Counted from the first letter of the stretch, positions 7,081-59,622 are shown. The stretch is 64,000 bases of DNA from a phage (GCA_026066175.1 GCA_026066175.1_4721.1); one strand, 5' to 3'. Notes: a model not told the origin generated them from the sequence alone. Program-made: numbers and translations.

Positions 7081-7095
7081 TAGGTAATATAGACC
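7081..7095 (-). promoter_or_regulatory. candidate phage early promoter motif (GGTCTATATTACCTA on the transcribed strand)
   Basis: Plus-strand TAGGTAATATAGACC; one of five copies of GTAATATAG(C/T)C, all placed so that TATATTAC reads toward a downstream minus-strand gene start. Confidence 0.45.
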
Positions 7096-7893
7096 TCAAC
7101 TTTTTTCCAATAATGCCGCAACGGAACGGGCGAATCGGATAACCTTGTAGTTGCGTGTCTGTGTGACATCTTCCCCATCGCTGTCCTCTTCGGACGGATC
7201 TTCCCACGTGAACTCTTGTTCCTCCGCTTTCTGGAGGTAACGATACAACTGCACCATACTGCGGGCTGTCGGAGAGATCGCTTGAAGTTCAGTTAAGTCA
7301 TCTTCCGTCAACAACACGTGCGGTGAACGCAGCGGTTCCATCGTGGTATTGCATAACAGACGAATCAGAAGATCCACGCATGGAATAATCGAACCTGGTG
7401 ACGCGATTTCAGGATGCAGCGTATACTGCCAATATACAGTGTTGTAATACGTCAATACCGCAGGTAACGACGGGTGTTCCATTACACGTGCGATTTGCTG
7501 TCTTACGATTGATGCGCGATCATTCAGAACATCAAGCGTGATCTGTTGTGGTTCCATCACCGCCATTGAAATGCCGTATGCGTCAGCCACGCCCAGGATT
7601 TCATGAAGGGACTGATGTTCTTCTTCAACAGATGTTGTTCCAACGGCTTTACGTCCAGCCAGCTCAATAAGCATGGGTGTAACGGTCTCTTTAACCGCGT
7701 TAAAAGAAGCCTGGTAAGCATGCTTGTGGAGATACAACGTCCAGGCTAATGCACGTTCTGCCGTATGCAGAAGATCAACATAAGACAGATCTTGATAACA
7801 AGGTCCGTATACGCTTACGGCAAGCTTGGTGGCTTTCTCGGATGCAGCCATAATAGCATCCGGTGATTTAGGCATATCGCGTTCTTCTTGCAT
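7096..7893 (-). CDS. hypothetical protein
   Basis: 265 aa ORF from track; no motif recognised. Confidence 0.65.
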   Translation of the reverse strand: MQEERDMPKSPDAIMAASEKATKLAVSVYGPCYQDLSYVDLLHTAERALAWTLYLHKHAYQASFNAVKETVTPMLIELAGRKAVGTTSVEEEHQSLHEILGVADAYGISMAVMEPQQITLDVLNDRASIVRQQIARVMEHPSLPAVLTYYNTVYWQYTLHPEIASPGSIIPCVDLLIRLLCNTTMEPLRSPHVLLTEDDLTELQAISPTARSMVQLYRYLQKAEEQEFTWEDPSEEDSDGEDVTQTRNYKVIRFARSVAALLEKS

Positions 7894-7904
7894 CTTTTTA
7901 ATTC

Positions 7905-7994
7905 CTACTCAACAAAAGGTTCGTGTTCGACATCACGTGTCATGTATCCGTAGAATAATGAGTCCTGGTAAGCTTTTACATCAAAAGACGGCAT
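7905..7994 (-). CDS. possible small ORF (29 aa, MPSFDVKAYQDSLFYGYMTRDVEHEPFVE)
   Basis: Found by manual translation; ATG preceded by GAGGAGG SD at ~10 nt spacing; too short for the ORF track. Confidence 0.2.
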   Translation of the reverse strand: MPSFDVKAYQDSLFYGYMTRDVEHEPFVE

Positions 7995-8177
7995 AAAAAG
8001 TACCTCCTCACCCACAAGGGGCAAGGAGGTTCGTCCATCACGACGGAAGGACGTTATGTGACGCGGTGTCCATAACGGCCCTGGTAGCAGGCATTAAAGA
8101 TAACAAAAAGGATGTAAGTTGAGCTAAACCACCTAAATACGGTAACGATGACTTCCGTACACAATATACTGCAACAC

Positions 8178-8987
8178 TTACCACTGGTTAAAGCTACCCG
8201 CTTTAACGACATCGCAACGCAGATGGTTACGTAACTGATCCAGGAAGACAACCGGGCTATCGCCGGATAGCATGGTCAGGGCATGTTGTCCACCGGAACG
8301 AACAACCAGCTCATCAACCATCGGTGCGGTAATCGGAAGATCGTACGCATCCATGATGGCTTTAGCTTCCTGTTCGAGGTCTTTCTGGAAGCCTTCCATC
8401 GTTGGAGAGTCGTATTTGGTTGCAAACTCGATCCCCGGTAAGTTGACATAATCGTACGTCATAACGCGGGTCATTACACGACGTCGCTCATGTTGCCAAA
8501 TCTGAGGATCGGTTAACGCGCGTACTGAAAAACACACGTTCACCAACGGCGTTTCAAAGTCTTTACGTAACGCATCACCATACGGACCACAAGGAATAAC
8601 ATCCCCCATCACCATCACGACAGGACGACCACGACGGTCGCGTCCTGATTCCTCTAACCAAATCTTAGAAAAGCAATGGCTTACCTTGGTTTCTTCGATT
8701 CGTAATGCACGCTGTAAAAAACTGGTTGCATCCTGACCAACTTCTGGTTTCGGATGACCGTACTCACCTTTCAATGAACGGTTACGTGCATTCGTTTGCA
8801 ATAAGCTGTTTTCTAAGAACAGCGGTTTCGAACGTTCAAGTTCGTAATATTCTTCGGTATTGTTAAAGCAGTTAAATCCGCCTATGACACAGGTGTAGGC
8901 ACCGTCGGCGTTAGGACGGATAATGCCTTTCTTATTTACACCAAGATAACTGGTGCAAACAAGATTACTAATTGGTGGTTGCATCAT
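8178..8987 (-). CDS. hypothetical protein
   Basis: 269 aa ORF with AAGGGG SD. Confidence 0.65.
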   Translation of the reverse strand: MMQPPISNLVCTSYLGVNKKGIIRPNADGAYTCVIGGFNCFNNTEEYYELERSKPLFLENSLLQTNARNRSLKGEYGHPKPEVGQDATSFLQRALRIEETKVSHCFSKIWLEESGRDRRGRPVVMVMGDVIPCGPYGDALRKDFETPLVNVCFSVRALTDPQIWQHERRRVMTRVMTYDYVNLPGIEFATKYDSPTMEGFQKDLEQEAKAIMDAYDLPITAPMVDELVVRSGGQHALTMLSGDSPVVFLDQLRNHLRCDVVKAGSFNQW

Positions 8988-9020
8988 AACCCCTTAATAA
9001 GCAACTAAATGAAAACACGA

Positions 9021-9752: not shown

Positions 9753-9753
9753 A

Positions 9754-13409: not shown

Positions 13410-13733
13410 TCTCTTGGGCGAATTTAGTTCTTATTCAGTATTAACATACCGTTACCGAAATAAGACTGAGATTAGATTGTTCAGATAAGGTCGTTAATCT
13501 TATCCCGGAGGTGATGATAGGCACATCACCTCCCGCTTACGTTCTCACGCAAGAGCAGACTATATCACATCTCGTTTCAAACGGTGCTTCTTCAGCACCT
13601 CAACGAGAGTTCACTTCTTCCCAGCGCATCCAGCGCCATTCTCTTATCCAAGGAGAATGCCTCACTCGAGGGGTACAGGGGGATGAATCCCTTAGTCGTT
13701 GAACCGTCACCCTAGAACGTTTCACAACGATCC

Positions 13734-14945
13734 TTAGGCGATTGGCTGCGGATTACCCTTGGCCTGCGGACCACGAACTTTTGTCGCGGTCAACTCTTCA
13801 TTTTTAAAGCCTGCTTCACGAGCAATACGTCTCGCTTCTCGCACGTCTAACGTTTCCGTTTCCGCTTTGGCTGAAGGCAGCATTGGGCGTCCCCGCAATT
13901 CAATGAATCTCGTCCATACGTCACCGTATAAACGGACCCGCTCTTTGTAAACAGAATAGTAGATATAACGTTTTCCGTCAGGAAATTTAGTCATTCCATC
14001 CGACTTTAAACGGTAATTGAGTAACGTAGTAGATATACCCATTTCTTCAGCGCAATCGACGGCCGAAAGGTACAACAGAGGTACATCATTTTCAGGAATG
14101 ACGACAATAGCACGTTTGTTGGTTGTCTTCTCCAACTCCAGGATACTATCTTCGACTTCTCGCCATGGCGTCTCATCAGTAACCCACTTAACTTGATAAC
14201 AACCATTAACGACAGGTTGGTTCTTGTCGTTAACGTACATCGACGCAGTGGATAACTTAACACCAATGTGATTCGCGAATTCAGTCAATGATTCGAAAAG
14301 ATGAATCTCTTTTGTTATCGTTGACCTTGCAATCACACCCTTACTTCCCGTATCCGTCAACGTTGCTAACTCGTATTTGGTGGGAATACGCCATGGTTCA
14401 TCGCCGTAATCTTTGCGGTACTGCTTACGTTCAGGAAACGCTCGCTGTTTGCCTCTATAGACACGATGATGAATGAAGTCGATATTCACACCAAGATCGC
14501 GTGCCGCTTCCGTCATGGATGGATATCTGGTTACAACACCGGTATCAACATCACGAACCTGAATAGGTTTACCGTAGGCAGCAATTGAACGTTTACGCAT
14601 GTTCATAATGCGAGCATGCTGATTGTTCTCTTTCTGCGTAACCCATTCAAGATTGTCATTCTCGGCGTTACCGTCGGGATCAAGGTAGTTATTAAGTCTG
14701 TTGCCGTCCTTGTGGTTCACATGGAGCAAATGCGCATCATCGATGTTACGGAACGTTAACATTAGAAGCCTGTGCATGGAACGGTAAACCAATGTTCCAT
14801 CGTGACCTCGAAACGAATAACGATAATACCCAGCAATGATGGTGGGCAAATATTCAAACTTCGATTCCTTGTTACGCAATGTTCCATCTATGGATATCTC
14901 CAGGAACGGGAATTCCGGTACGGTCTTAAATACCTTCTCACTCAT
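13734..14945 (-). CDS. HNH homing endonuclease with NUMOD-like DNA-binding repeats
   Basis: HVNHKDGNRLNN...NLEWVTQKENNQHA HNH motif near the N-terminus; three helix-turn-helix-like repeats (TEAARDLGV, TEFANHIGV, VDCAEEMGI). AAGAGGAA SD before the ATG and a TATATTAC-type motif ~45 nt upstream. Confidence 0.8.
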   Translation of the reverse strand: MSEKVFKTVPEFPFLEISIDGTLRNKESKFEYLPTIIAGYYRYSFRGHDGTLVYRSMHRLLMLTFRNIDDAHLLHVNHKDGNRLNNYLDPDGNAENDNLEWVTQKENNQHARIMNMRKRSIAAYGKPIQVRDVDTGVVTRYPSMTEAARDLGVNIDFIHHRVYRGKQRAFPERKQYRKDYGDEPWRIPTKYELATLTDTGSKGVIARSTITKEIHLFESLTEFANHIGVKLSTASMYVNDKNQPVVNGCYQVKWVTDETPWREVEDSILELEKTTNKRAIVVIPENDVPLLYLSAVDCAEEMGISTTLLNYRLKSDGMTKFPDGKRYIYYSVYKERVRLYGDVWTRFIELRGRPMLPSAKAETETLDVREARRIAREAGFKNEELTATKVRGPQAKGNPQPIA

Positions 14946-14985
14946 TGACTATATTCCTCTTGTGCAGTGAAACTAACTACACTTT

Positions 14986-14997
14986 CGTAATATAGCC
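14986..14997 (-). promoter_or_regulatory. candidate early promoter motif upstream of the HNH gene (GGCTATATTACG on the transcribed strand)
   Basis: Plus-strand CGTAATATAGCC in the 75-nt gap between the beta-like ORF stop and the HNH start. Confidence 0.4.
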
Positions 14998-15020
14998 TTA
15001 ATTCTGTTTACATTGAAGCC

Positions 15021-18000
15021 TTAATCATCTCTATCAGCAGCAGGTACTGCAAGTGCTGATGTACTCATTATTGACGAGCTACCATCCGTTTTCTCGTCGT
15101 AGGGTTTCGTTTCACCGTATACAGACACAATGTTTGCGTTAGGTGCGAGGTAAGCAGAAATACCTACGTCCCCACTATCCTTCGTACCTTCGGATACAAC
15201 ACCAATGTCCGACTTGTCGTACTCACGATCGCGTGCGCGTCGAAGCGATGTTTTCGAACGACCCCCGATACCGGTCATCGTTGCTTCTTCACCCTGCTTG
15301 ATATCCAGCATCGGGTTGGTTTCATCGATGACGATAGAAGCACTGTCGTCAAGGATTTGGTTCCAAACGCTCACCGGACTGATTGAGATCTTCTGTCGGT
15401 TGCCTTGGCTGCTGTTCTCGTTTTGACGAATAGCACCAACCAGATCCTTATACACCAACTCAGCGAACTTATCGTACGTTTTGAAGCGCTGGTAGTTCAC
15501 GTCGTTCGTGTTAGGTGCCCAATCGTCCAGAAGCAGTTCAACCGCACGTAATAACAACATGGCGAAATCAGTCGGTTCGCCCATGTTCTGTAATAACGTA
15601 CGACTTACCGGGTCGACGAAAAGACGCTCCATGAGTTCAAGTTCGCGAAGATGACGAACCTTAAGACCTGCACCATCGACAACGTTAAAATAGATATCCC
15701 GATTGTCGAAAGCACCTCGAGCGTAACCAATGTAGTTACGGTATTCGTTGAATCCGCCTAACAACAATGTCGTCATTCGATCATCTTTACTGAAGATCAA
15801 ACTTTCATCGTCGAAGCTCACCGCGAATTCATCCGATGCTAATCCCATACGAGAACCACGAGGTACCGTACGGTAGTTCGCTTTAAGATGTTCTAATAAC
15901 GGTGTAAGACCACCTAAGTAACTTAACACAACACCAACCGGAATACGTACGCCCATGAACTCAAGGTCAGCGGCTTCGATGGGCATCTTCGCGGCATTGA
16001 TACCGAAGAAATCAGGGAACGTTCCAACCGGCGTTGGGGTTTGATTCGGTTCGTAAACGTATAACTGATTCTGACCATCCACCGCCAGGAATTCGCCGTT
16101 GGTGTTTTTGGCGAACGTTAAGAATCCACCCGCCAGCTGTTCGGTGAATAAATCTTCACCGATGTGTTCCGGCAACGTTTTGATATCGAGGCGTATGTCC
16201 CAATCCGCAAATTGGATTTGGGTGTAGTTACGTGCAAGCACCGCGAAGTAATACGGAACTTTGACAGACGGATCAAAGACGTTACCACGTTTTAAGGTGG
16301 TTAAGGGCGAGGTTTTATCGTAATACATCGCTGTGAGTTGACGTGTTAACCAACGACCAGCATTATTAACCACGCGTTCTGAACGCTTAACGAACACCTT
16401 ACCGTAGGCGGTACTCAACGCAACTTCGGATGACGATACCTTTCTGATTGGTTTATCGACACGTTGTTTACGCATTCGATATTTAATGCCGTTAACGACA
16501 TAAATGCCGTCCTTACGAACCTTCGGTAACATCACCGGGAACGTGGTCGGAACACCGCCTACCGGAGCCAGCTTGATCGTGATGACCTGGTAATCACCCA
16601 TCACGTCAACAACATCTTCAACTTTATATCCGGTAACAGGATAGCCCGCTTGCTGCACCGCCACAACGGCTGCTGCGATGTCCTTTTGCATGACATGTTC
16701 GACGTAGTGTTTATCCCATACGGCAAGCGTCGATTTGCACAAGCTCTTATCAACGATAACGTCCGCTTCCGGCATCACCTTCTCAGGTGCTAATTTCGCG
16801 GCTTTTGGTTTAACCTCAACGTATTCAGCAAGCGTGAGTCCAGAACCGTCAGGTGCTTCAATTTCATGAATCGCGTCAGCGTTACGCATCGCTGCTTTAT
16901 ATTGAACGCCGCTTAATTGACCAGCATCCGCGAGGTCGCTTGCACGTACCAGCACTGCATCGGATAACGACTGAATATATTCACCGTGCGTTTTCGGTAA
17001 CGTTGCCGCATCGAAGACATCAACTTTTTCTTCCGGCATGTCATCGTTGACAACCTCAAAGAGATCATCGGTGATGTCTTGATCTTCGTCCGGTTGAAAA
17101 TCGGGCTGAACTTCAACGCCAGGGACTTCACGAACATCTTCAAACGCACGTTCAACAACCGCGTTCCATGCTTCAGCGTCGTCATCTTCATCCGATCCTC
17201 CGATCAACTCGCTTTCCAGTTCATCGGGGTCAAGAACGGTATCAAGGTCCTCACCGTTAGGAAGCACGACATCACGTTCATCGTACTCCGCATCGGGACT
17301 GTCTGCGAGAATATCACGCTCTTGACGAAGAACCTGCTCCTCTTCTTGTTTCTGTTCTTCTTCATTGGCGCTCTGCGACCACAGACGGGTTACCGCCATC
17401 ATCCAACGACGCTGGAACGTTTCAAGCGTTGTCTTATCAAGTTCCTCGCCTTCCTTCGCTAAACCCGAACGCCATTCTTCCATTAAACCAAGATTCAGAG
17501 TAAAGAAATAGACGCCGTCCGTAAATACAACGTTAAGCTTATCCAGCGAAGCACGGTCCAATGATACCATCGTGCTGTTCTCACGATCGACACCTAACCA
17601 ACGGAAGAAGTCAAAGAACGACAGCTCCTCGGAGGTGGCAAAATTCATGAGGTTATTACGGGTTGGGGCTTGTTGTGTCGTACGCATCAACGATATCTTC
17701 GGTAACGTCGACGGGATACGGAATAACAAGAACTGCTGACGGTCGCTTTGTTGGGCGATCTCGTTTGCTTGCGTCCAAATCGTTTTACGCACGTTGAACC
17801 ATTCATCATACCAACGGGTCAGTGTCGGACGATAGATGTACATGTGGTTAAGATGCGCATAGTTAGCCACGATCTGGGCGTTGATGTTCTTCTCAACCTT
17901 GCTAAGATCGGTGACCAAACGAAAACGACGATGCGATGCACGGTAATCCAGTTTCGCACGCGGTAGCTGGAATCGCTGATCGCGTCGAGGTGCGCCTTGC

Positions 18001-30121: not shown

Positions 30122-30634
30122 TTAAACTTCTTCGTTTTCTGAACCTAATGATTCAGCATCTGGATCGTCAACAGGAACGGTTGCATCAAAATACCGCTTC
30201 GTATGCGTGGTTGTGTACCCTACGCTATCCGTAATGGAAATCGTAAACGTCACTTCCCTTGCACGTATTAAACGCAACTTGTTCATGAAGTTCCGAAAAG
30301 GCATGGATCCACGATTCAACTCCTTGATGACGTTTCCTCGAATGCTGGAAATGTCTTTATTCGTTTTATCGGGATGCCGTTTCTTCACGTCACGCATATG
30401 TCGGGTGATATACGAATTGAGCTGATTTGCGCCGATCCCTCTCTCCGTATAAATCTGCAACAAGAACTCCGTCAGGAAATCCTGTCTACCCGTAGGCGTC
30501 CAGAAGTTGTTACCGTGGTTATAGTTAGTCGCTCGTCCTCGATTACTTTGAGGATTTTCATCATCGCTTTCGTCACGACGCTTAAGCGGATTAATGCGTG
30601 CGCGAAAAGAGACTTCGTTATATTTATCTATCAT
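30122..30634 (-). CDS. hypothetical basic protein
   Basis: ORF track 30122..30679 trimmed to the ATG that overlaps the upstream stop (ATGA), implying translational coupling. Confidence 0.55.
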   Translation of the reverse strand: MIDKYNEVSFRARINPLKRRDESDDENPQSNRGRATNYNHGNNFWTPTGRQDFLTEFLLQIYTERGIGANQLNSYITRHMRDVKKRHPDKTNKDISSIRGNVIKELNRGSMPFRNFMNKLRLIRAREVTFTISITDSVGYTTTHTKRYFDATVPVDDPDAESLGSENEEV

Positions 30635-31146
30635 AGTACACCAGTGTATTGACTGAGTGCGAAGGTTAGGAGTTCGCAACAGTCTCTCGCTAGTTTCCTT
30701 GTTTTGCGTAATCCATAAGCCGCATCCAAATCGTCACGTTCCGCCAGCGCGTCTAACCACGTCGCAAGTATGCGTCCATACTCGATAACGTCACGCATGA
30801 GAACGTCGAACTGGATAACACGACCATCGGCATCAGCAAGCCAACGATTGAATGTAATTTGTGGTGCTAATATTGCATAGGTTCTCTCCTCTAATGTTAT
30901 TATGTTTATGTTGCCTTCGTTATCGAACGCTTGATGCCAACGGCGTAGGTCAAGCATCAACGACTCAGCATCCATATACCACAACGGTAAATACGTTTTA
31001 CGTGCAACACGTATATCGTAGATGTTGTGAACCCAGGACGTTGTTTTATAGAGCAACAAGAGTTCGTTTAACCGTTGCCTATCATCTTGAAACGTCTTCC
31101 TTTTATAACGTTGGAAAGCACGCCTCAAGAAAAAGCGATGTAACAT
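30631..31146 (-). CDS. hypothetical protein
   Basis: 171 aa ORF; first gene downstream of the TATATTAC-type motif at 31237-31249. Confidence 0.6.
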   Translation of the reverse strand: MLHRFFLRRAFQRYKRKTFQDDRQRLNELLLLYKTTSWVHNIYDIRVARKTYLPLWYMDAESLMLDLRRWHQAFDNEGNINIITLEERTYAILAPQITFNRWLADADGRVIQFDVLMRDVIEYGRILATWLDALAERDDLDAAYGLRKTRKLARDCCELLTFALSQYTGVL

Positions 31147-31236
31147 GGCATCACCTATGTATCATTCTTGCAGGTATCAATGATACCGTCACAAGAAGGT
31201 AACGTTTTACGTCGCCTCCATGACTGTTATCATGAA

Positions 31237-31249: not shown

Positions 31250-31280
31250 TGATATTTTTTTCAATACGGAGAATAGAATA

Positions 31281-41888: not shown

Positions 41889-42590
41889 TTAGGATGCGGA
41901 TAATCTAGCGTACTTTTGTCGAATATGGTTCTTACGGCGAACTTCGTCATCCTCGTCGCGCCATTCGAGGTAAGCTACGAATCGCCGTAACTGCGCTGCA
42001 GTCATTGTTGCTGACAGATCTTCTATTTCTAAAACAACATAGTGAACTTCGCCGACACCATCGCAGTCAGTATAACGGAATACCAAAAGATCCTTATCAT
42101 ATTCCGTGATAATAACCTTGAATCGTTTCTCGAACAAATAAAACAGTTCCGATTCGATAATCATCGGGATAACACAATTATCGTCACGTTCAATGATTTT
42201 CATCATCACACGTAACGCACGAAGCGTGTGATGGGCGAACGAACCATTAAATCGTTGATTCATTGCTTGTCCCACATCAACGATCTTTGTTCCTGGCCAG
42301 GGACGGATTACTGATTTCGGTGGTGTAAGACGGCAGCGGTACGCTTGTATAAACAACAGAATATCGGCGACATTAGGAAATTCTTCCTGGTCTTTGTACA
42401 GCTTACGGATAATATCCGGGATCGTAGTCAACAAATATTTCCTATCGCCTCCCACTTTCTCGAGATTAGCGATATGCCCTTCTACCACCGGCTGGTAAAC
42501 GAAATTATACCAGTGGTGGTATTTTGCAACGTGTTGGTATTTCGGGATGAAATTAAGAACAGCGTTCACTGCGCGTTTTAATGGGTTCAT
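41889..42590 (-). CDS. hypothetical protein
   Basis: 233 aa ORF. Confidence 0.6.
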   Translation of the reverse strand: MNPLKRAVNAVLNFIPKYQHVAKYHHWYNFVYQPVVEGHIANLEKVGGDRKYLLTTIPDIIRKLYKDQEEFPNVADILLFIQAYRCRLTPPKSVIRPWPGTKIVDVGQAMNQRFNGSFAHHTLRALRVMMKIIERDDNCVIPMIIESELFYLFEKRFKVIITEYDKDLLVFRYTDCDGVGEVHYVVLEIEDLSATMTAAQLRRFVAYLEWRDEDDEVRRKNHIRQKYARLSAS

Positions 42591-42604
42591 CAGAAGAATC
42601 CTTC

Positions 42605-43039
42605 TTATGTTTTAATATGCACATCGTCAATCCCCTCGGTAATCCAGCCGATGGGAAGGACAATCGTTGTTATCGTGTTATGTGTGTAAGGATTAAGAAA
42701 ATGGAAATAGTAATTTGTGTTAGATTGTTCGATGCGTAGGTCGAGCTGTGCGTCTTCAGGTAACCGTAACCAGGCACCGTACAGTTCATTAAACTTACGC
42801 TGAATTTTACCTGGGTTCATTGGAACCCCACGACCACGTTGATGTAGCTGACGTAATGATTCAATCAAACACTCAGAGATACCCGTTGTCGTTCCGTTAT
42901 CGCTTGTATCGACAACGATGAACTCTCGTGACCCACGACCAAGATAAAAACCAGCAACAAAAGCTGCAGCAACAAAAAATATCGTACCGATACCAATATA
43001 CCAATAGTAAGTATCCATAACGGCCTCACTTATACCCAA
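42605..43039 (-). CDS. small membrane protein (one N-terminal TM helix)
   Basis: 144 aa ORF; hydrophobic stretch IGIGTIFFVAAAFVAGFYL. Confidence 0.55.
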   Translation of the reverse strand: MGISEAVMDTYYWYIGIGTIFFVAAAFVAGFYLGRGSREFIVVDTSDNGTTTGISECLIESLRQLHQRGRGVPMNPGKIQRKFNELYGAWLRLPEDAQLDLRIEQSNTNYYFHFLNPYTHNTITTIVLPIGWITEGIDDVHIKT

Positions 43040-43557
43040 TAGTCGGCAAGCGGTTTCACCTTATTAACGGGTAATTGTACTTTACCGATATTCTCTACAT
43101 CTGCATCCGCGTAGAGAACAATTTTATCATTGTCTCTTTCCCAACGAATAATAAATCGACCAGGAAGAAGATTACCCTGTTCAAGAGACGCAGTAACCTG
43201 CTGCGTTAACACCGACAACCAAGCAGGCATCAGTGTTGCAATATCTAAGTCATTTGACCATTCAGCACGTTGCTCCACAGGGCGTAACATCCGTTGGATG
43301 GTGCGTTGAACCGTCGCAGTGATATAGCCTTTATCTTCATCACTGATCGGATCCGGACGAGACACAAAACGTTCAGTAGGCTTGTGGGTAATATGTTCAT
43401 GCAATTCGATGAGTGGTGTTGTCATAGTACTCGCTCCGTCAGAATGTAATTGGGTAACCCGCAGGGTTGTCTGCATGGTATTCAGAAGCGCAAAAGCGCC
43501 ATAAACAACAACGACACTAAGTACAACCAAAACAGAAATCATTAACGTATATTGCAT
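43030..43557 (-). CDS. small membrane protein (one N-terminal TM helix)
   Basis: ORF track 43030..43605 trimmed to ATG (MQYTLMISVLVVLSVVVVYGAFALL) with GAGGAGA SD. Confidence 0.55.
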   Translation of the reverse strand: MQYTLMISVLVVLSVVVVYGAFALLNTMQTTLRVTQLHSDGASTMTTPLIELHEHITHKPTERFVSRPDPISDEDKGYITATVQRTIQRMLRPVEQRAEWSNDLDIATLMPAWLSVLTQQVTASLEQGNLLPGRFIIRWERDNDKIVLYADADVENIGKVQLPVNKVKPLADYWV

Positions 43558-43625
43558 TGATATCTCCTCTTCATACGCATCTTGAAGATTAGTTAAAATC
43601 AACAAAAGAAAAAACGATATAAAGC

Positions 43626-43651
43626 AAGGTCCTCTGATATCAGAGGACCTT
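43626..43651. promoter_or_regulatory. perfect 26-bp palindrome AAGGTCCTCTGATATCAGAGGACCTT
   Basis: Read directly; lies between two membrane-protein genes of the same operon; could be an RNA hairpin (processing site or attenuator) or a dimeric protein-binding site. Confidence 0.4.
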
Positions 43652-43658
43652 GGATCAA

Positions 43659-44315
43659 TTAGCTTGCAGCTTCTTCATTTGTTTCAGGTTTGCTTCCCCC
43701 TAACAAACCGTCAAACAGACCCGTATGTTTCAGGTAGAAGAGAGCGATAGCGCCCATTGCTGCTGCGCTCGTCGCCGTTAATGCAACCCCTGCACGATAC
43801 TGCCATTTACGGTCAGGCTTTTGATCAAGCGCCATACGACGCATGTATTCAGCCTCTGCTTCATTCCGATGAATTTCGGATTCGGCCAAGCGGGCTAAGG
43901 TATCGCGGTCAAGGTTATCATAACGTGCGTTCATGGTGGTTTCCTCTTGTTTGGAAGTTGATTGCTTGGTAGATTCTTGGTCAACAGTCGTTTCGGTTGG
44001 TTCAAACGGCTGGTTGTTCATTTTCTGATCTTTATTGGACATGATAGGCTCCTTCGATTTTTGAGACGAAATTGATTTAAACCATCGTGGATGGCGGTAT
44101 TCGGTTTTACATGTACAGTTAAGTTTCTCATGCAGGAAGGCGTAAAAACGTTTCGCACCTACACGTAAGGCTTTCAGCATTACCCATCCACGAGCACTCA
44201 AACGGTGTAGCTGTTGCGGTATGTCGAGTTTCCTAGCCAAGCGAAAGTATCTCTCAATCACTTCGATAGGAAACCATTGTTGTTCCACATCGGTGAGACT
44301 GAAAGTCTTATCCAT
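43659..44315 (-). CDS. membrane-anchored protein (C-terminal TM helix)
   Basis: 218 aa ORF; C-terminal GVALTATSAAAMGAIALFYL hydrophobic helix; first gene after the motif at 44346-44357. Confidence 0.55.
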   Translation of the reverse strand: MDKTFSLTDVEQQWFPIEVIERYFRLARKLDIPQQLHRLSARGWVMLKALRVGAKRFYAFLHEKLNCTCKTEYRHPRWFKSISSQKSKEPIMSNKDQKMNNQPFEPTETTVDQESTKQSTSKQEETTMNARYDNLDRDTLARLAESEIHRNEAEAEYMRRMALDQKPDRKWQYRAGVALTATSAAAMGAIALFYLKHTGLFDGLLGGSKPETNEEAAS

Positions 44316-44345
44316 GAATGAAATCTCGCTGGCTTACTTCACTTA

Positions 44346-44357
44346 AGTAATATAGCC
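44346..44357 (-). promoter_or_regulatory. candidate early promoter motif (GGCTATATTACT on the transcribed strand)
   Basis: Plus-strand TAAGTAATATAGCCGTGAAA, ~30 nt upstream of the start at 44315; the same 20-mer recurs at 59607-59626. Confidence 0.45.
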
Positions 44358-44465
44358 GTGAAAAATGATGGAATAAGTTAAATACGACAACCGCAACTAA
44401 TTTTATAGGCTTTTAGCCTAAACCAATCATCTTCGGAATCATCATCTTTGAAACAGGAATCTATC

Positions 44466-52970: not shown

Positions 52971-53360
52971 TTAACGGATTGCGTTTTGGATGATTTCTTT
53001 TCCGATCGTAATCAAAGCAGGTATCTGTACTGCGGTTGCACCTTGATGACGAAACGCGGTCGCTAACGCGGTATCGATGCTCACAGCACGTCCGTGAAGA
53101 CGATCGAAATAGACTTGAGTGATAGCAGCGGCATACTCTTTTCGCTGTTTCTTGGTTTGGTTTACCATCGTCGCACTACTACCGACGATGAAATAAGCGA
53201 TTAAGAAGAATGCGGCTGACCGTGAGCCGGGTAGAAAGCCTTGGCGTTTAGGAAGCATTTCACAATCACGAACAGTAATACTGTTCGTGAGCTTTTCCAT
53301 GTCGACATGGCATAATTTTGCATAGGTGTGAAGATGATGGGTAAAAGTAGAATTTAACAT
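52971..53360 (-). CDS. hypothetical protein with one hydrophobic helix
   Basis: 129 aa ORF with GAGGAAAGAA SD; last gene of the minus-strand operon that starts at 59523. Confidence 0.55.
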   Translation of the reverse strand: MLNSTFTHHLHTYAKLCHVDMEKLTNSITVRDCEMLPKRQGFLPGSRSAAFFLIAYFIVGSSATMVNQTKKQRKEYAAAITQVYFDRLHGRAVSIDTALATAFRHQGATAVQIPALITIGKEIIQNAIR

Positions 53361-53464
53361 TTCTTTCCTCGGTTACAATGAGTTCAATGTATGGCGTAAA
53401 CGTCACAGAACGACGTATAACAGTTTGTTTTGATTTCTAAGGTGTTTCCCTATCTAAGAGTGAA

Positions 53465-53827
53465 TTAAAGCGTTCTGAAGAGTTCTGTGGCGTTCTCAGC
53501 ATGTAAACATGCTTCGTTCAACAACTCCGCTAACAACTTCGATCTAACTTCAACGAATGTCCTGGTACGATGCTCCCAGTCTAAACGGATGGTGTAAGTA
53601 TCATCCATGTTTCTGTGGTCAACAACAGATGTTGAACAACGTGTTTCTTGTTTATTCACAGCACTCCAGACATCACGGATAATCTTCATGCCTTTCTTGG
53701 TGCACGTAAACGTCAAGATACAACGATTATTCGCTGCTTCTTCACAAACGTGAATAAATTCGCTTCGTAGCGATGAGGTCTTGGTCAATCGATCGATAGC
53801 AAGCGATAACCCAATACGTTGTTGCAT
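53465..53827 (-). CDS. small paralog family A protein (120 aa), unknown function
   Basis: Shares LTFTCTKKGMKIIRDVW with FTFVCTALGKTLLEAAFW (53829..54242) and LGFVFSQTGKDVLENIFW (54258..54701). Confidence 0.55.
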   Translation of the reverse strand: MQQRIGLSLAIDRLTKTSSLRSEFIHVCEEAANNRCILTFTCTKKGMKIIRDVWSAVNKQETRCSTSVVDHRNMDDTYTIRLDWEHRTRTFVEVRSKLLAELLNEACLHAENATELFRTL

Positions 53828-53828
53828 A

Positions 53829-54242
53829 TCAAATTCCTTCTTTCAAAATCTCATTAAGGCCGTCTGCAACCGCGTCCAAATGGGCATCCATATCCGTTAC
53901 GGTGCCAGCGGTAACTGTCCAGACGTGCCGTATTAATGTCTCACCATTCGTACATTTTACCATTTCCATCGCCAACTTTGTTTGTCCTGACGATGGTGAG
54001 ATCTCATTGCTCCGCCAAAACGCAGCCTCGAGTAATGTTTTACCTAACGCTGTACACACAAAAGTAAATTCTACTTGACCAATACCTACCACCGAAGCGG
54101 ATAACGGTTGGATATGTTCGCGCAGCTTATCATCTTCACGTAGGAGCAGCAGTGTACGATGTAAGTGTGTACGGTGGGTAACAATAGCGTCGTAATGACC
54201 GATGCGTACATCGGCTACTGATTCAGGCCAGTTAATTTTCAT
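53829..54242 (-). CDS. small paralog family A protein (137 aa), unknown function
   Basis: See shared motif F-x-F-x-x-T-x-x-GK-x-[LI]-[LI]-x-x-x-[FV]-W; starts 2 nt after the upstream gene. Confidence 0.55.
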   Translation of the reverse strand: MKINWPESVADVRIGHYDAIVTHRTHLHRTLLLLREDDKLREHIQPLSASVVGIGQVEFTFVCTALGKTLLEAAFWRSNEISPSSGQTKLAMEMVKCTNGETLIRHVWTVTAGTVTDMDAHLDAVADGLNEILKEGI

Positions 54243-54257
54243 GTTCGATTCCTCGTA

Positions 54258-54701
54258 TTAACACTGTGTTCCATTCGATAAGCGGGTGGTATCAAAACGA
54301 TCCAGTTGGTGTACAATGCTATTAGCAACACGATGCAAATAGTGTATTTTGTCCATTCGTGAAATCGCAGAAATCGTCCAGCAAGCCTCTGACGTCCAAT
54401 AGGTGCCGTCTTCACTAAGGCTAACGTTATAAACTAACTTCGTCATCACATTTCTCGCCTTATGCTCAGCAGACCAGAATATGTTTTCTAACACATCCTT
54501 CCCCGTTTGTGAAAACACGAACCCAAGCTTCACGTCGAAGTCGGATGCTTCAAGATTAACAAAGTGAAGATGATTCTCCAAAGGCGCAAAAGAGGCTAAA
54601 CGTTCCAGCGCGTTTTGCAGCGTGGGATGATCGAGCTTTTCGAGATCATCCACAGGTTGTTCAGGTACAATCGCGATCGATTTACAGAATTTAATTTCCA
54701 T
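54258..54701 (-). CDS. small paralog family A protein (147 aa), unknown function
   Basis: Shared motif as above. Confidence 0.55.
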   Translation of the reverse strand: MEIKFCKSIAIVPEQPVDDLEKLDHPTLQNALERLASFAPLENHLHFVNLEASDFDVKLGFVFSQTGKDVLENIFWSAEHKARNVMTKLVYNVSLSEDGTYWTSEACWTISAISRMDKIHYLHRVANSIVHQLDRFDTTRLSNGTQC

Positions 54702-54731
54702 GGTAGGTTCCTCTTGATAGATGGTAGTAAC

Positions 54732-54751
54732 GGGGATACCGCGGTATCCCC
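54732..54751. promoter_or_regulatory. perfect 20-bp palindrome GGGGATACCGCGGTATCCCC within the operon
   Basis: Read directly; in the 57-nt gap between 54759..55229 and 54258..54701. Confidence 0.4.
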
Positions 54752-54758
54752 TAAGTCT

Positions 54759-55229
54759 TTATAACACGCCCCAAGCCATATTGGGTACAGGCTCGTTACG
54801 TTCGATGTAATACATCAAGCGTTCTTTAAGTTTGGTTAACGCCTCAGCAACGATGTTCTCCATGGCAATCACCTTTCCAATGTAATCCATGGTATCCTGC
54901 CACGTAAACCATTCGACGGTATTGACGATGTAAAGGGTTTCATCGTCGTCGGTCATGACCTTGGCATTTTCACGATGATCGCGGGTCGCGTATAACGGTG
55001 TTTTTAGATTCGCTCTGATACGTACCCAGAGCTTCTCCAGGAAATCGCTCGGTTGACTATCTGTCGTGATGATAAGTTCACTCCGTACTGAACGCTCTCC
55101 ACGCTTTTCAATAACAAGTAAACCATCGTAAGTGATGTTCATCAAGTTACGAAGGTCATCATTGCTATTCCAGTCTTTTACAACAGCAGGAAGTTGGCTA
55201 TTGTACTCTTCAGGTAATCTCTTAAGCAT
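54759..55229 (-). CDS. hypothetical protein
   Basis: 156 aa ORF; 8-nt overlap with the upstream gene. Confidence 0.55.
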   Translation of the reverse strand: MLKRLPEEYNSQLPAVVKDWNSNDDLRNLMNITYDGLLVIEKRGERSVRSELIITTDSQPSDFLEKLWVRIRANLKTPLYATRDHRENAKVMTDDDETLYIVNTVEWFTWQDTMDYIGKVIAMENIVAEALTKLKERLMYYIERNEPVPNMAWGVL

Positions 55230-55674
55230 CGGTTTCTGCTCCTATATCACGTTTGAGTTCGGCGACCAGTTTGTCGTAATGGTCTTTTATCACATTCGCC
55301 ATAACGAATTGCGCTTTTCTCACTAGCTGCTCATTGGCATCACTGAATGTAAAATACTCTCGCACTTCAACCGGATGTGATACGCCACCGATATCGTAGG
55401 CTTTATTCGATGTGCGTTGAGCGATCACTGGGAGCGGTTTCGCGGCGTTCAGCGCAGTACAGATTTCCGTAACGAGTTCTTGAATTTGGCTTTTCCCTTC
55501 GATGATAACGCTGCAACGATAAACATCCACCTCGTTAAGTTGTTCAACAACATCCGCCTTGATTTTGAATTGACCTACAAGCGCGCTTACTAAAGTGCGG
55601 TGCCAATTGTTCACCACTCCAACCAGCAATGGATGATTCTCAAGATCTCTTCTGTTCATTTCTGAGCTCCTCAA
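55222..55674 (-). CDS. hypothetical protein
   Basis: 150 aa ORF. Confidence 0.55.
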   Translation of the reverse strand: MRSSEMNRRDLENHPLLVGVVNNWHRTLVSALVGQFKIKADVVEQLNEVDVYRCSVIIEGKSQIQELVTEICTALNAAKPLPVIAQRTSNKAYDIGGVSHPVEVREYFTFSDANEQLVRKAQFVMANVIKDHYDKLVAELKRDIGAETDA

Positions 55675-55697
55675 TCGCTCTATAACAAACTTTTAGA

Positions 55698-55720
55698 GGA
55701 AGGGAATATGTTTCCCTTCC
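55698..55720. promoter_or_regulatory. hairpin GGAAGGGAA-TATGT-TTCCCTTCC within the operon
   Basis: Perfect 9-bp inverted repeat in the gap between 55739..56014 and 55222..55674. Confidence 0.4.
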
Positions 55721-55738
55721 TTGAGTTAGTTTATTGCG

Positions 55739-56014
55739 TTATACAACTTTTCTGTGCGCGTAGAACACCTTCGTTCCGTTGTTGATCGCCTCAACCACAT
55801 CCAGGGTTAACACAACGGCGTTATCGCTTCGCGACGACGGTGCGTAATACCCTTCACCGTTCTCGGTAATCAGGCGATAACGGACTAAGCCTATACATGG
55901 TTCAACGCGTACCACTCTTTCGAGTTTGTACTTGATGATCTTCGTCAGGCCGATAGTCTCTGATGCGTAGATGGCTTTATAAACTTTGTTCTTTGCTGTC
56001 GTTTTCATCAACAT
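55739..56014 (-). CDS. hypothetical small protein (start uncertain)
   Basis: ORF track 55739..56083 overlaps the 3' end of 55977..56873; trimmed to an internal ATG (MLMKTTAKN...), leaving ~38 nt of overlap; weak SD. Confidence 0.4.
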   Translation of the reverse strand: MLMKTTAKNKVYKAIYASETIGLTKIIKYKLERVVRVEPCIGLVRYRLITENGEGYYAPSSRSDNAVVLTLDVVEAINNGTKVFYAHRKVV

Positions 56015-56873
56015 GGTTTCTGTTTTCCTTGGTTTGTTGTGGTCCCAGGTCAGAGATATCCCAACGGATATAACCAACATCACGGATTCGCTCGGCTATT
56101 TCTTCGAATTGTGAATCACGACTGATAACCGGTAACCATTCCCCTTCTCGGGTTATCTTAACTTCGGCGATCTGTAAGCTCATGTTCCAACGAACGTCAT
56201 AAACCAGCGCGTAACCAAGAGGATGAACAAGCCCATCCTGGTTATACATCTTCAAAAGACCTCTTACGTCTTCGCTGCGCGGTAATTCCGCCATAGCAGG
56301 ACGTACACGTTGAAGTCTCTTTGTGGTATCGTATCCTAGCTCAATATCTTTCCAGCCCGTCATGACGTAAGGAACAACGTTGCGGCGACGGAGTTGATGG
56401 TTGTGAGTGGTTTCTTCGGCGGTAAGGTGTACCCAACCGAGATCGCTGTACGCCACGAACCGCGCTCCTTCTCCATCGAGCACTGTGTGCTCATCTAACG
56501 CTGCTGCAACACCATGGCCTGCGTAATACGGCGGAAGAACGTTCAGCATTTTAATACGGCTTTCTTGACCGGTATGGTCAGGGTCGATATGCGCGTAGTA
56601 ATAATTACGGCTTACCGGACGACCTTCCGCCATACGTCCACGGAAGACAGGGTCCTGCATTCCAAGCGGATGGTAATACGCGAGCTGTTGTTCGTCACCT
56701 TCCCCGATGACCAACAAACGATCTTCACGACTTGGTGTGCTAGGATCTTTCACCGTGATGTAGGTAACAATCACTTTCAGATTGTCTAAAATGTCCTGTG
56801 GAAGTTTCTCTAAATCCCGTGCGTCGTAAATACGATTAACAACAACGTTTGCAATGTGTTTTGGTAAGCTCAT
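55977..56873 (-). CDS. paralog family B protein (298 aa), unknown function
   Basis: Shares blocks with three upstream paralogs: AYYHPLGMQDPVF, GWVHL, VVPYVMTGWKD, KRLQRVRP, GLVHPLGYALVYDVRWN, WLPVIS, GYIRWDISDL. Confidence 0.6.
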   Translation of the reverse strand: MSLPKHIANVVVNRIYDARDLEKLPQDILDNLKVIVTYITVKDPSTPSREDRLLVIGEGDEQQLAYYHPLGMQDPVFRGRMAEGRPVSRNYYYAHIDPDHTGQESRIKMLNVLPPYYAGHGVAAALDEHTVLDGEGARFVAYSDLGWVHLTAEETTHNHQLRRRNVVPYVMTGWKDIELGYDTTKRLQRVRPAMAELPRSEDVRGLLKMYNQDGLVHPLGYALVYDVRWNMSLQIAEVKITREGEWLPVISRDSQFEEIAERIRDVGYIRWDISDLGPQQTKENRNHVDENDSKEQSL

Positions 56874-56953
56874 TTTAGATCTCTCTTTGTTATTGGTAAA
56901 ATAAATAACGGCATAAAGGGGACATAACTGCCCCCGTGTTAAATATCAACTGT

Positions 56954-57796
56954 TCACGCTTTCAGATCTGAAATATCCCAACGTACGTAACCGGTACGCT
57001 CAATGTCGTCAACCAGTTGCTTGGTTTGATTTTCAACACCAACGACAGGCACCCAATTTAAACGCCAGCGCCCACCGACATTAACCTCAACACGCTGCAG
57101 ATCTTCATTCCAACAAACCCCATTCGGTCTCAAAAAGCCCATCGGGTGGACGAAGTCCTCATCGTAATCTTTCAATAGCGCGAGAATATCGCTTCGGCTA
57201 TAAGTCTTCACGCTTGCTAGATGTACGCTTTGTAGCTTATCGCGCAGACCCCAACCATACTCACAATCACGCCATTCAGGCATGACAACCGGCAGTACAT
57301 TCCGATGACGGATGTATTTTGCCGCTTCAGCAATATCAGCTGGAAGATGTATCCAACCTAAATCGCTGTTAGCAATAAAATCAGGACTGTCCATTTCATG
57401 GATGTAATGATCGTAAAGCGTAGCAGCGAGTCCTTCAGCAAGCACGTTTGTTGGAAGGAGGCAGTTGGCGCTTATCTTGAAATCGAATACATCGGCATCA
57501 GGATCCACATACGCGTAAAACCCGCGTGCGAAAGCGCCGCCATGTTCTTTGAAGCAGTACTGGAATACATTGTTTTGCATTCCGATGGGGTGGTAGTAAG
57601 CCAACACACGTTGTTCGCCGTCCGTGATTTCAATGAGCTGATCTTTCGGCTTCGGCCAGGTGATCTTCTCAACACCGCAAACGCTGACGATCTTTCGTAG
57701 ATTCACCTTGATATGTTCCGGGAGATGCCCGATTTCATTTTCATGATAAACACGGGTGATAACGGTATTGATAACCGGCTGTGGTTTAGCTATCAT
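56954..57796 (-). CDS. paralog family B protein (280 aa), unknown function
   Basis: AYYHPIGMQNNVF, GWIHL, VLPVVMPEWRD, DKLQSVH, FVHPMGF, WVPVVG, GYVRWDISDL; GAGGAA SD. Confidence 0.6.
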   Translation of the reverse strand: MIAKPQPVINTVITRVYHENEIGHLPEHIKVNLRKIVSVCGVEKITWPKPKDQLIEITDGEQRVLAYYHPIGMQNNVFQYCFKEHGGAFARGFYAYVDPDADVFDFKISANCLLPTNVLAEGLAATLYDHYIHEMDSPDFIANSDLGWIHLPADIAEAAKYIRHRNVLPVVMPEWRDCEYGWGLRDKLQSVHLASVKTYSRSDILALLKDYDEDFVHPMGFLRPNGVCWNEDLQRVEVNVGGRWRLNWVPVVGVENQTKQLVDDIERTGYVRWDISDLKA

Positions 57797-57836
57797 TTAT
57801 CGTTTCCTCTTCGTTTTGTGGTTATTGATATTCGTA

Positions 57837-58703
57837 TTACGGTTTAAGATCTGCGATGTCCCAGCGGACATAGCCAACACGTTCGATTTCGCGAGCAAGG
57901 TCTTCGTTGTGAACGTCTACCCCAACAACAGGTAACCAGTTCCCATCTTTGCTGATCTTCACATGAACGATGTTTTGCGAAGTGATGAACTGATTAACAT
58001 CGTGCACCAACGCATAGCCTAACGGATGGATAAAGCCTTCAGCGCAGCATGAATCACGAAGAACGCTCAACATGTCGACGGCTGAAGGGCTAACGCAACG
58101 GACAGGGCGTACGCTTTGCAATTTGTCGGATGCCGCTTGGGCAACGCGTGCATCACGCCATCCCGTCAAGTATACCGGTTTTATATCCCGTTTTAGTAGA
58201 TGTTCGATCTGGATCGCTGTGTCATTATGAACATACACGCAGCCCTGTTCGGTTTCGGTGTCGTAGTCACCTTCATTAAACGCGTTTATTCGGGCAGGAT
58301 AAACCTTCTGGTCTATCGTCACGGCAACCCCTTCAGCGAATGTGGTCAACGGAAGAAGACGTTCTAAACACGCGATTGGATAATCCGCTGATGCTCCAGG
58401 ACGAATATGCGCCAGCATTCCCCAACCATCAGGGAATCCATGTCGGTACATGTATTGCTGGAATACCTCATCCTGCATTCCTAACGGGTACCAGCGTGCA
58501 AGCCGCTGCTGCTCACCGTCCTGAATAACAAAAAGCATTTCTTTGCGTTTAGGCCAGCGGTGATGTTCTACGGCCAAGCCCTCAACGATCGGTTTCAAAT
58601 TGGCTTTGATATGCTCAGGAAGTTGATCCACCTCTTCACGACGATAAATACGATCGATGAGGGTAACGTCGATCTTCTGGCCCATCATCTGCATTAAACT
58701 CAT
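57837..58703 (-). CDS. paralog family B protein (~288 aa), unknown function
   Basis: ORF track 57837..58844 trimmed to ATG (MSLMQMM...) with AGGAG SD; ARWYPLGMQDEVF, PVYLTGWRD, DKLQSVRP, FIHPLGYALVHDV, WLPVVG, GYVRWDIADL. Confidence 0.6.
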   Translation of the reverse strand: MSLMQMMGQKIDVTLIDRIYRREEVDQLPEHIKANLKPIVEGLAVEHHRWPKRKEMLFVIQDGEQQRLARWYPLGMQDEVFQQYMYRHGFPDGWGMLAHIRPGASADYPIACLERLLPLTTFAEGVAVTIDQKVYPARINAFNEGDYDTETEQGCVYVHNDTAIQIEHLLKRDIKPVYLTGWRDARVAQAASDKLQSVRPVRCVSPSAVDMLSVLRDSCCAEGFIHPLGYALVHDVNQFITSQNIVHVKISKDGNWLPVVGVDVHNEDLAREIERVGYVRWDIADLKP

Positions 58704-58770
58704 TTTTATTTCTCCTGCTGTTTTACGATGCATCGTTTTGCTCCTGTGGTTCTTTGTTTTCGGTATCGTG

Positions 58771-59523
58771 TTATGCCTGGCGTAGCATGGTAACGTCCCA
58801 TCGTACCAGCTTGCTTCGCTCAAGCATCCCCTGCGCATGCGCAACGCTTAAGTCCGACGGCACCACCACCGGCAACCAACGTTCGTTAAGCACCTTCGCT
58901 TCCAGCCGCTGCTTGCGTTTGTTGTAACGCACCTCGCTAACCCATGCATAACCGAAAGGATGGATAACCCGTAGGTAGTAACGTTTCAGCATGGCAAGAC
59001 GTTGCTGATAAAGCATATCGGAACCTGCGCTGACGAACAAGGCCACCCGTTCCAACCGCCTGGTGTAATACGTTCCAACGGTATGGTTGATCCAACCCGG
59101 AAGCACCAGTTCATCAGGCGTATCCGCCCATGAGGTATCGTGCACCTCACCGCTATACACCGTCCCAGTCACCTGGCCCGATGCGTCCAACAACGACCGT
59201 GGTAAATCATCCGCGGTAGGATACAACCATGCATCATCAAGTCGCTCCCCCGATGCAAGCACGCGTAACCCGCTTGCGCTTACCCGCGATGGATGCTGGC
59301 TCTTATGCGCACGCAATGACACCACAGACAGATCCGTTGGATGAGCAAGACAACACCCCCGCTGACGGAATAACCCAACCGTACCATCCACCCCTTCGAT
59401 CATGCTTCCTTCCAAACCGTCCCACCAGTAGTTTACCTGCACGCATTCTGCTTTCACTGCCTCAGGCAACAGTAAATAGTCACGTTCAATGAACACGGTA
59501 TCAAAAATGATTTTATCGCTCAT
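58771..59523 (-). CDS. paralog family B protein (250 aa), most diverged member
   Basis: VIHPFGYAWVSEVRYN, WLPVVV, LVRWDVTML align with the other three; AAGGAA SD; first gene downstream of the motif at 59608-59622. Confidence 0.55.
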   Translation of the reverse strand: MSDKIIFDTVFIERDYLLLPEAVKAECVQVNYWWDGLEGSMIEGVDGTVGLFRQRGCCLAHPTDLSVVSLRAHKSQHPSRVSASGLRVLASGERLDDAWLYPTADDLPRSLLDASGQVTGTVYSGEVHDTSWADTPDELVLPGWINHTVGTYYTRRLERVALFVSAGSDMLYQQRLAMLKRYYLRVIHPFGYAWVSEVRYNKRKQRLEAKVLNERWLPVVVPSDLSVAHAQGMLERSKLVRWDVTMLRQA

Positions 59524-59607
59524 GGATAAAGTTCCTTGTTTTCACGTTGTTTGATTAACGTACTGATTTCTATTTGACAGAAGACGAACATTGTACGCAT
59601 CTATCAC

Positions 59608-59622
59608 GTAAGTAATATAGCC
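59608..59622 (-). promoter_or_regulatory. candidate early promoter motif (GGCTATATTACTTAC on the transcribed strand)
   Basis: Plus-strand GTAAGTAATATAGCC, ~90 nt upstream of the start at 59523; 20-mer TAAGTAATATAGCCGTGAAA is identical to 44343-44362. Confidence 0.45.

Follow-up and report, generated by a model that had tools for sequence, protein, structure and literature searches.

Five co-oriented copies of a phiKZ-type early-promoter motif in a Goslar-like jumbo phage

Which RNA polymerase (RNAP) reads a motif that recurs five times, always in the same orientation, ahead of minus-strand genes of a jumbo phage? The motif, GTAATATAG, lies in a 64,000-nucleotide stretch of phage DNA (GCA_026066175.1_4721.1; hereafter the window, with positions counted from its first letter) that shares ~88% identity with Escherichia phage vB_EcoM_Goslar (Goslar), a jumbo phage of the phiKZ-like, nucleus-forming kind. 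The best explanation, to which we give a probability of about 0.9, is that the five sites are early promoters, read by a multisubunit RNAP that the phage itself encodes and packages in its virions (vRNAP).

Five co-oriented, non-coding copies of one motif

Exact copies of GTAATATAG are found at 7084, 14987, 31238, 44347 and 59612 (sites P1 to P5), all on the plus strand, against an expectation of 0.26; none of 100 dinucleotide-preserving shuffles reached five copies, and the other strand of the window holds no exact copy. This count bears out the five copies and coordinates given in an initial annotation of the window, together with its statement that no copy faces the other way. By itself, the reverse-complement 8-mer core TATATTAC is only marginally enriched, with five copies observed versus 2.0 expected and five of 100 shuffles reaching that number. 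Read on the minus strand, however, all five sites consist of CTATATTAC, five variable bases and an invariant TG. This longer pattern, CTATATTACN5TG, has five exact matches in the window and six when up to one mismatch is allowed, against 0.87 expected, and no shuffle out of 100 reached six; the sixth match is a one-mismatch copy on the plus strand. The (C/T)C ending that the initial annotation had ascribed to the motif holds in part: its second base is always C, while the first is A, C, T, C and C in the five copies.

All five sites are non-coding in a window that is ~92% coding on a greedy map of open reading frames (ORFs); one of them overlaps a 72-aa ORF (31151-31369) for which the Goslar annotation lists no equivalent. 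The conserved G of the TG precedes the start codons at 6960, 14945, 31146, 44315 and 59523 by 117, 35, 85, 25 and 82 nt, respectively, in agreement with the distances to minus-strand gene starts proposed previously. Upstream of every site is an A/T-rich block, which is of two kinds, ATTG(G/A)AAAAAA..(C/G)AGG or (A/C)(T/C)TTTCACGG (in short form, ATTGAAAAAAA..CAGG and ATTTTTCACGG). Alignment and information content place a conserved T/A-rich sequence at −20 to −35, as in phiKZ-type vRNAP early promoters, and the highly conserved AT-rich element of 8-10 nt expected near −10 is present in all five sites as CTATATTAC.

Position weight matrices separate the sites sharply from the remainder of the window. 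With a first matrix, built from ten sites, the five scored 38-60 and the next best window position 4.5. To guard against circularity, an independent matrix was trained only on phiKZ sites and on those Goslar sites that fall outside the stretch matching the window. It gave four of the sites scores of 38-46.5, the intron-borne P2 a score of 15.6 and the best other position 4.8, and with the two matrices no further weaker site was found in the window, nothing falling between 4.8 and 15.6. In the Goslar genome, TATATTAC occurs ten times, always on the minus strand and in eight cases with N5-TG, and the matrix scan gives 12 sites a score above 26, each of them on the minus strand, before dropping to 10.3 for the next one. 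Four of these 12 (at 43266, 15067, 86705 and 49732) carry TACATTAC in place of TATATTAC, as in phage EL. The systematic motif scan that had been suggested as a check was run on both the window and the Goslar genome, with the window sites lying in non-coding DNA and in one orientation only.

Published early promoters and expression in Goslar

Judged by its DNA, the window belongs to a Goslar-like chimallivirus. It is syntenic with Goslar, window positions 1-41843 corresponding to Goslar 194856-237307 and 41789-62906 to Goslar 1-18349. The segment at 41789-41843 spans both ends of the Goslar record, with ~55 bp matching both, which indicates that the genome is circularly permuted or terminally redundant relative to that record. 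A virion-packaged multisubunit RNAP is encoded, as seen from the orthologues of three beta-type RNAP subunits in the window (Goslar gp207, gp205 and gp196). The last of these, gp196, served as the tagged vRNAP subunit in a study of the Goslar vesicle (10.1101/2023.09.20.558163).

Early elements read by vRNAPs are AT-rich, ~10 nt long and centred near −10 (reviewed in PMC7598289), and conservation at −10, −20 and −30 is described in the literature. The early promoters predicted by Lewis et al. (PMC7058600, Table 2) read TATATTAC in phiKZ, TTTRARR_BTATATTACDWHDGTG in 201phi2-1, CTACATTAT in EL and ...TTTCARRYAKATATTATYWAAGTG in OBP and N1M2. The initial annotation had taken TATATTAC to be the core of phiKZ early promoters, and this is both in print in that table and visible in phiKZ itself, whose first 50 kb contain seven copies, all co-oriented with genes and all with N5-TG, one upstream of chmA (PHIKZ054) and six before other genes, with a similar upstream block. 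An early promoter motif has been located at the primary transcription start site of phiKZ chmA by differential RNA sequencing (dRNA-seq; PMC8244752), and this chmA promoter, AATGAAAAAAATTTGAGATTTATATTACTAAATTGA, is strikingly close to P3, ATTGAAAAAAATATCAGGACTATATTACCTTCATGA.

The 8-mer core and the N5-TG spacing to the presumed start are therefore identical in phiKZ and in the window, and the A/T-rich upstream block is similar (chmA promoter AATGAAAAAAATTTGAGATTTATATTAC, P3 ATTGAAAAAAATATCAGGACTATATTAC). In phiKZ, too, the sites are co-oriented with early operons, and like the type of phage represented by the window it has two multisubunit RNAPs and a phage nucleus. The two differ in host and genus, the window coming from an E. 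coli Goslar-like phage with 47% GC versus 37% in phiKZ; the second upstream flavour of the window, TTTTTCACGG, is nearer to the consensus of 201phi2-1, N1M2 and OBP than to that of phiKZ; and sites per genome are fewer, 12 strong ones in Goslar compared with the 28-32 reported in phiKZ. Nearly all positions of the window consensus TTTCACGGCTATATTACTTAnGTGA agree with the 201phi2-1 pattern, and the EL pattern is matched by a Goslar variant, CTACATTAC. Whereas the promoters of 201phi2-1, OBP, N1M2 and EL are mostly bioinformatic predictions, the assignment in the window has block-by-block RNA sequencing (RNA-seq) support from a close relative. No published Goslar promoter motif was found in the literature searched. 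Among IMG/VR records, exact copies of the 17-mer TTTCACGGCTATATTAC are confined to four Goslar-like contigs and are co-oriented within each contig.

The likely start site can be placed by comparison. Transcription in phiKZ and phiR1-37 starts 6 nt downstream of the element, and the AR9 early promoter has the layout AAATATATATTAT-(6N)-G+1 (PMC5312081), which the window sites match; AR9 differs in its uracil-containing DNA, in having no nucleus, in being only distantly related and in an element that ends in T rather than C. Since these spacings agree, the conserved G is the predicted +1 of each site (Table 1). At the level of sequence, the TG is invariant at the matching spacing in the five window sites, the 12 strong Goslar sites and the seven phiKZ sites.

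Expression evidence comes from per-gene read counts at 30 min in Goslar, ChmA knockdown versus control (bioRxiv 10.1101/2023.09.20.558163, Sup. Table 2). The knockdown arrests infection at the injected-vesicle stage, and its profile matches 5 min of normal infection according to the authors (10.1101/2023.09.20.558163). The log2 fold changes (log2FC) are bimodal, about −1.3 to +1.4 versus −3 to −8. The persistent group includes chmA and genes annotated as RNAP subunits (gp247, gp171 and gp165, presumably of the non-virion enzyme), the nucleus-dependent group contains the vRNAP genes and structural genes (−3 to −8), and phiKZ shows the same pattern of persistent and dependent genes.

Of the nine persistent blocks that we counted in Goslar, eight begin with a strong matrix site and one with a match to the core only (Table 1); all four sites with TACATTAC head such blocks. 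The first gene past each strong site has a log2FC of about +0.5 to +1.3, and at sites that have a late gene on their upstream side, the value jumps by 4 to 8 log2 units. For four of the five window sites, the Goslar orthologues sit at such late-to-early boundaries: from gp213 (about −3.9) to gp214 (about +1.1) at P1, gp199 (about −4.3) versus gp200 (about +0.5) at P3, gp005 (about −6.7) versus gp004 (about +1.24) at P4, and gp022 (about −4.8) versus gp021 (about +1.25) at P5. Through these orthologues, the sites are seen to head co-oriented early operons and not late or structural genes; the fifth has no orthologue. Between the window and Goslar, sequence conservation in the promoters and 5' untranslated regions equals or exceeds that of the coding DNA next to them. 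P1 is 100% identical from about −37 to +20 (7091 being Goslar 201944), P3 and P4 are conserved (31245 and 44354 being Goslar 226695 and 2567), and P5 (59619 being Goslar 15067) reads CTACATTAC in Goslar, which implies that both variants work. At the P5 position of a third relative, the exact 17-mer is kept. A separate observation concerns the Goslar site at 49732, which lies inside the annotated start of gp047, and that start codon may be misannotated.

Together, these findings are best accommodated by a vRNAP that would be injected with the DNA and would transcribe the early genes before a phage nucleus exists. It would recognize CTATATTAC at about −15 to −7, with the A/T-rich block lying at about −20 to −35, and would start at the G of the invariant TG past the element, 6 nt after it. 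Each promoter would open a minus-strand unit (6960-5423, 31146-30122, 44315-41889 and 59523-52971) or, for P2, the HNH gene.

The intron-borne site and other explanations

P2 differs from the other four sites in its setting. It lies 30 nt into a putative group I intron of the orthologue of gp207, 35 nt before the start codon of an HNH gene, and is the weakest match (15.6 with the independent matrix, against a background of 4.8). The insertion at 13409-15037 is absent from Goslar, hence the lack of a Goslar orthologue for P2, and gp207 residues 1-1069 and 1071-1449 align on either side of it. An intron core (Rfam RF00028) is detected at 13536-13959 with 51.4 bits (threshold 50), and predicted splicing after U 15024 and after G 13419 would join ...DRDD to PKRLVF in frame. 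An RF00028 core, an in-frame gene interruption, the exon U and intron G, and an embedded ORF are the features by which we assign the element to group I introns with a homing endonuclease. The ORF product matches Pfam NUMOD1 (2.4e-8), an I-TevI DNA-binding domain (9e-6) and, weakly, HNH_3, and its best relatives are endonucleases of other chimalliviruses, with ~35% identity.

Several further observations concern this cassette. Near the 3' end of the intron, 32 nt (13478-13509) are 100% identical to 40 phage records, mostly T4-like, and the annotated matches lie in or beside the thymidylate synthase (td) gene, which points to an intron core in common or to recent exchange. This identity to T-even td introns and the ~35% endonuclease relatives were all that was found of the cassette in other phages. 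The intron content of the vRNAP cluster varies, too, the 1.6-kb intron with its HNH gene in the gp207 orthologue occurring in the window only, and a 2.1-kb insertion of Goslar (211753-213838; an annotated group I intron plus gp206) being absent from the window at ~18413-18454. Finally, a one-mismatch core, CTATATTCCTCTTGTG, is located on the plus strand at 14949-14964, 16 nt from P2 and overlapping the ribosome-binding region of the HNH gene; its matrix scores are at background, and as a further site it is probably a chance match.

The strongest competing explanation concerns P2 only, namely that the other four sites are real early promoters and that the copy at 14987 is weak, silent or fortuitous, the HNH gene being expressed only from the late vRNAP beta pre-mRNA. 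Its independent score of 15.6, against 38-46 for the others, results from a deviating upstream block, and the AR9 vRNAP tolerates even single departures from its consensus very poorly (PMC5312081). Moreover, gp206, the Goslar ORF next to an annotated group I intron of the vRNAP cluster, lacks the motif, and its log2FC of about −4.1 puts it among the late genes. On the other side, the P2 core, CTATATTAC-N5-TG, is perfect, correctly oriented, non-coding, suitably placed ahead of the HNH start and above background, and there is a precedent in AR9, where a proven early promoter and the early gene g190 lie inside an intron of the late gene g189 (PMC5312081), gp189 being among the AR9 virion RNAP beta-like polypeptides (PMC5312081). 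The layout is the same as that of P2, the HNH gene and the group I intron in the vRNAP beta gene, with the difference that the AR9 case was shown by dRNA-seq and P2 is a prediction. On balance, this reading of P2 appears unlikely, although it is the alternative with real weight.

It is conceivable, and we offer it as a tentative idea with odds below even, that an early promoter is carried along by the mobile cassette of intron and HNH gene, so that the endonuclease would be made at the vesicle stage. If this is true, its synthesis would precede by hours of phage time the transcription of its late host gene, that of vRNAP beta; the endonuclease could cut intron-less co-infecting genomes early, and the early HNH transcript would extend into exon 2 of that host gene as well. 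If the arrangement is general, as the same layout at AR9 g190 might indicate, selfish elements of jumbo phages would repeatedly capture a vRNAP promoter.

Several points weigh against vRNAP early promoters as the explanation of all five sites. The Goslar data are gene-level counts and resolve an early start to one intergenic region, not to a nucleotide; insensitivity to ChmA knockdown is a proxy for vRNAP dependence; and the expression support comes from Goslar. Up to 2017, vRNAPs had been neither purified nor assayed in vitro on promoters of this kind (PMC5312081). TATATT resembles the −10 hexamer of sigma-70 promoters, and by sequence alone the host RNAP would be a conceivable reader. The intron site scores far lower and has no orthologue, which makes its activity the least certain.

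The indirect assignment of the enzyme gives some room to middle or late promoters, to another signal for a non-virion RNAP or to binding sites of a phage regulator, and the intermediate values of Goslar gp215 and gp216 suggest that later enzymes may also transcribe these genes. However, the middle promoters of phiKZ are marked by TACT near −22, and its late promoters carry TATG where transcription starts (PMC7598289, PMC8244752). The former does not fit the window sites, and TATG is found at the conserved G in none of the five (ACTG, AGTG, CATG, AGTG and CGTG). In addition, genes past the Goslar orthologues stay on without a nucleus, whereas nucleus-dependent genes fall 10- to 100-fold. We consider this class of explanations very improbable.

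Least probable of all, by a shade, are host sigma-70 promoters used by E. coli RNAP right after injection with TATATT as the −10 hexamer, which matches TATAAT at five of six positions and is preceded by TTGAAA or TTGGAA at two sites; we rejected this on hexamer spacing (13 nt, not 16-18 nt) and on a sigma-70 consensus scan, which calls none of the five, the conserved C after TATATTA and TG at +1 being irrelevant to sigma-70. Early transcription that is resistant to rifampicin and independent of protein synthesis is known for phiKZ and AR9 (PMC7598289, PMC5312081), the element shared with phiKZ drives transcription there that requires neither host RNAP nor protein synthesis (PMC7598289, PMC5312081), and early transcription in Goslar takes place inside the vesicle carrying the vRNAP. 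Sigma-70-like matches are also fewer than in shuffles in three segments of the window (16 vs 27.7, 27 vs 33.3 and 18 vs 27.3), a shortage that fits a phage not using the host enzyme.

The predicted early units and their significance

The features assigned to the window, and the Goslar sites to which they were compared, are collected in Table 1.

Table 1. Predicted promoters, early units and intron features of the window (window coordinates), and Goslar sites with the gene blocks that they head (Goslar coordinates)
Feature	Coordinates	Strand	Details
P1, predicted early promoter	7077..7123	-	core CTATATTAC 7084-7092; predicted +1 G 7077; upstream ATTGGAAAAAAGTTGAGG; independent matrix 38.1
P2, candidate early promoter	14980..15023	-	core 14987-14995; predicted +1 14980; inside intron
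P3, predicted early promoter	31231..31277	-	core 31238-31246; predicted +1 31231; upstream ATTGAAAAAAATATCAGG; divergent intergenic; independent matrix 46.5
P4, predicted early promoter	44340..44386	-	core 44347-44355; predicted +1 44340; upstream TTTTTCACGG; divergent intergenic; independent matrix 45.9
P5, predicted early promoter	59605..59651	-	core 59612-59620; predicted +1 59605; upstream CCTTTCACGG; independent matrix 44.7
Early unit 1	5423..6960	-	three genes, 6481-6960, 5962-6375 and 5423-5962; orthologues of gp214-gp216
HNH/NUMOD1 homing endonuclease gene	13734..14945	-	intron-encoded, 403 aa
Putative group I intron	13419..15023	-	1605 nt, in virion RNAP beta gene; exons 15024-18230 and 12279-13418
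Early unit 3	30122..31146	-	two genes only, 30631-31146 and 30122-30679; orthologues of gp200, gp201
Early unit 4	41889..44315	-	four genes; orthologues of gp004-gp001
Early unit 5	52971..59523	-	~11 small genes of unknown function; orthologues of gp021-gp014 plus ~2.7 kb without Goslar match
Goslar site	2567		block gp004-gp001, persistent
Goslar site	15067		block gp021-gp014, persistent
Goslar site	43266		block gp040-gp037, persistent
Goslar site	49732		block gp047-gp044, persistent
Goslar site	86705		block gp075-gp070, persistent
Goslar sites	142800, 113797		block gp159-gp094, persistent
Goslar sites	187639 (core-only, score 2.2), 172978 (chmA), 166069, 160791		block gp225 down to gp162, persistent
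Goslar site	201944		block gp214-gp216, persistent
Goslar site	226695		block gp200-gp201, persistent

As for the extent of the early units, the initial annotation had predicted early operons from 6960, from 31146 and at 52971-59523, and an early trio of membrane-protein genes at 42605-44315, as well as early expression of the HNH gene, for which Goslar has no orthologue. Expression of the Goslar orthologues supports the first and the third of these operons. In unit 1, gp214 (log2FC +1.1), gp215 (about 0) and gp216 (about −0.35) contrast with gp217 (−4.9) and with flanking genes at −4 to −5. In unit 5, gp014-gp021 range from +0.8 to +1.4, and gp013 is at about −5.5. The operon from 31146 is also supported as early, but it comprises two genes rather than a longer series, because gp200 (+0.53) and gp201 (+0.58) persist and gp202 (−3.5) does not; no terminator was detected between the gp201 and gp202 orthologues, although the Goslar counts drop there. 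The trio is likewise supported (gp004 +1.24, gp003 +0.45, gp002 +0.48; gp187 is at about −7), and the unit includes a fourth gene, 41889-42590, the orthologue of gp001 (+0.28). Behind the first gene of this unit is a terminator-like hairpin (43625-43652; 12-bp stem), in line with the drop in log2FC from gp004 to gp003.

The products of the early units have few recognizable domains. Those of unit 3 have no Pfam match, and the Pfam scan of unit 5 found none for ten products, 52971-53360 lying outside the scan. The gp215 orthologue (5962-6375, minus strand) matches DUF488-N3a (PF22751, E = 8e-9), the sole family match among the scanned early-unit products besides the HNH endonuclease. Such a near-absence of Pfam matches among early products is typical for these phages (PMC5312081). 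By a crude hydropathy scan, the first three genes of unit 4 (42605-44315) each encode one hydrophobic segment resembling a transmembrane helix; early membrane proteins are of interest in that the phage genome first sits in a lipid vesicle. Within unit 5, 56030-58765 (~2.7 kb) and 54902-55660 have no alignable Goslar counterpart. Early-gene content turns over between close relatives, and the promoter stays in place. Finally, the 117-nt leader of P1 (6961-7077, minus strand) shows four differences from Goslar, including two single-base indels, whereas upstream coding DNA diverges much more; it holds a 6-codon mini-ORF (ATGAAGAAAAGAATCTTCTGA), and it is possible that this leader is structured or regulatory.

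The kind of promoter described here is already known, and our findings do not change the understanding of how these phages work. What they provide is a rule, CTA(T/C)ATTAC-N5-TG plus the upstream block, that would mark vesicle-stage, vRNAP-driven starts in Goslar-like E. coli jumbo phages. It thereby singles out uncharacterised genes that would act first, ~20 small genes in the window, including the three predicted membrane proteins. A phiKZ consensus promoter has reportedly already been used for phage engineering, and the block-by-block agreement with Goslar RNA-seq suggests that the sites described here could provide a usable early-promoter cassette for engineering Goslar-like phages.

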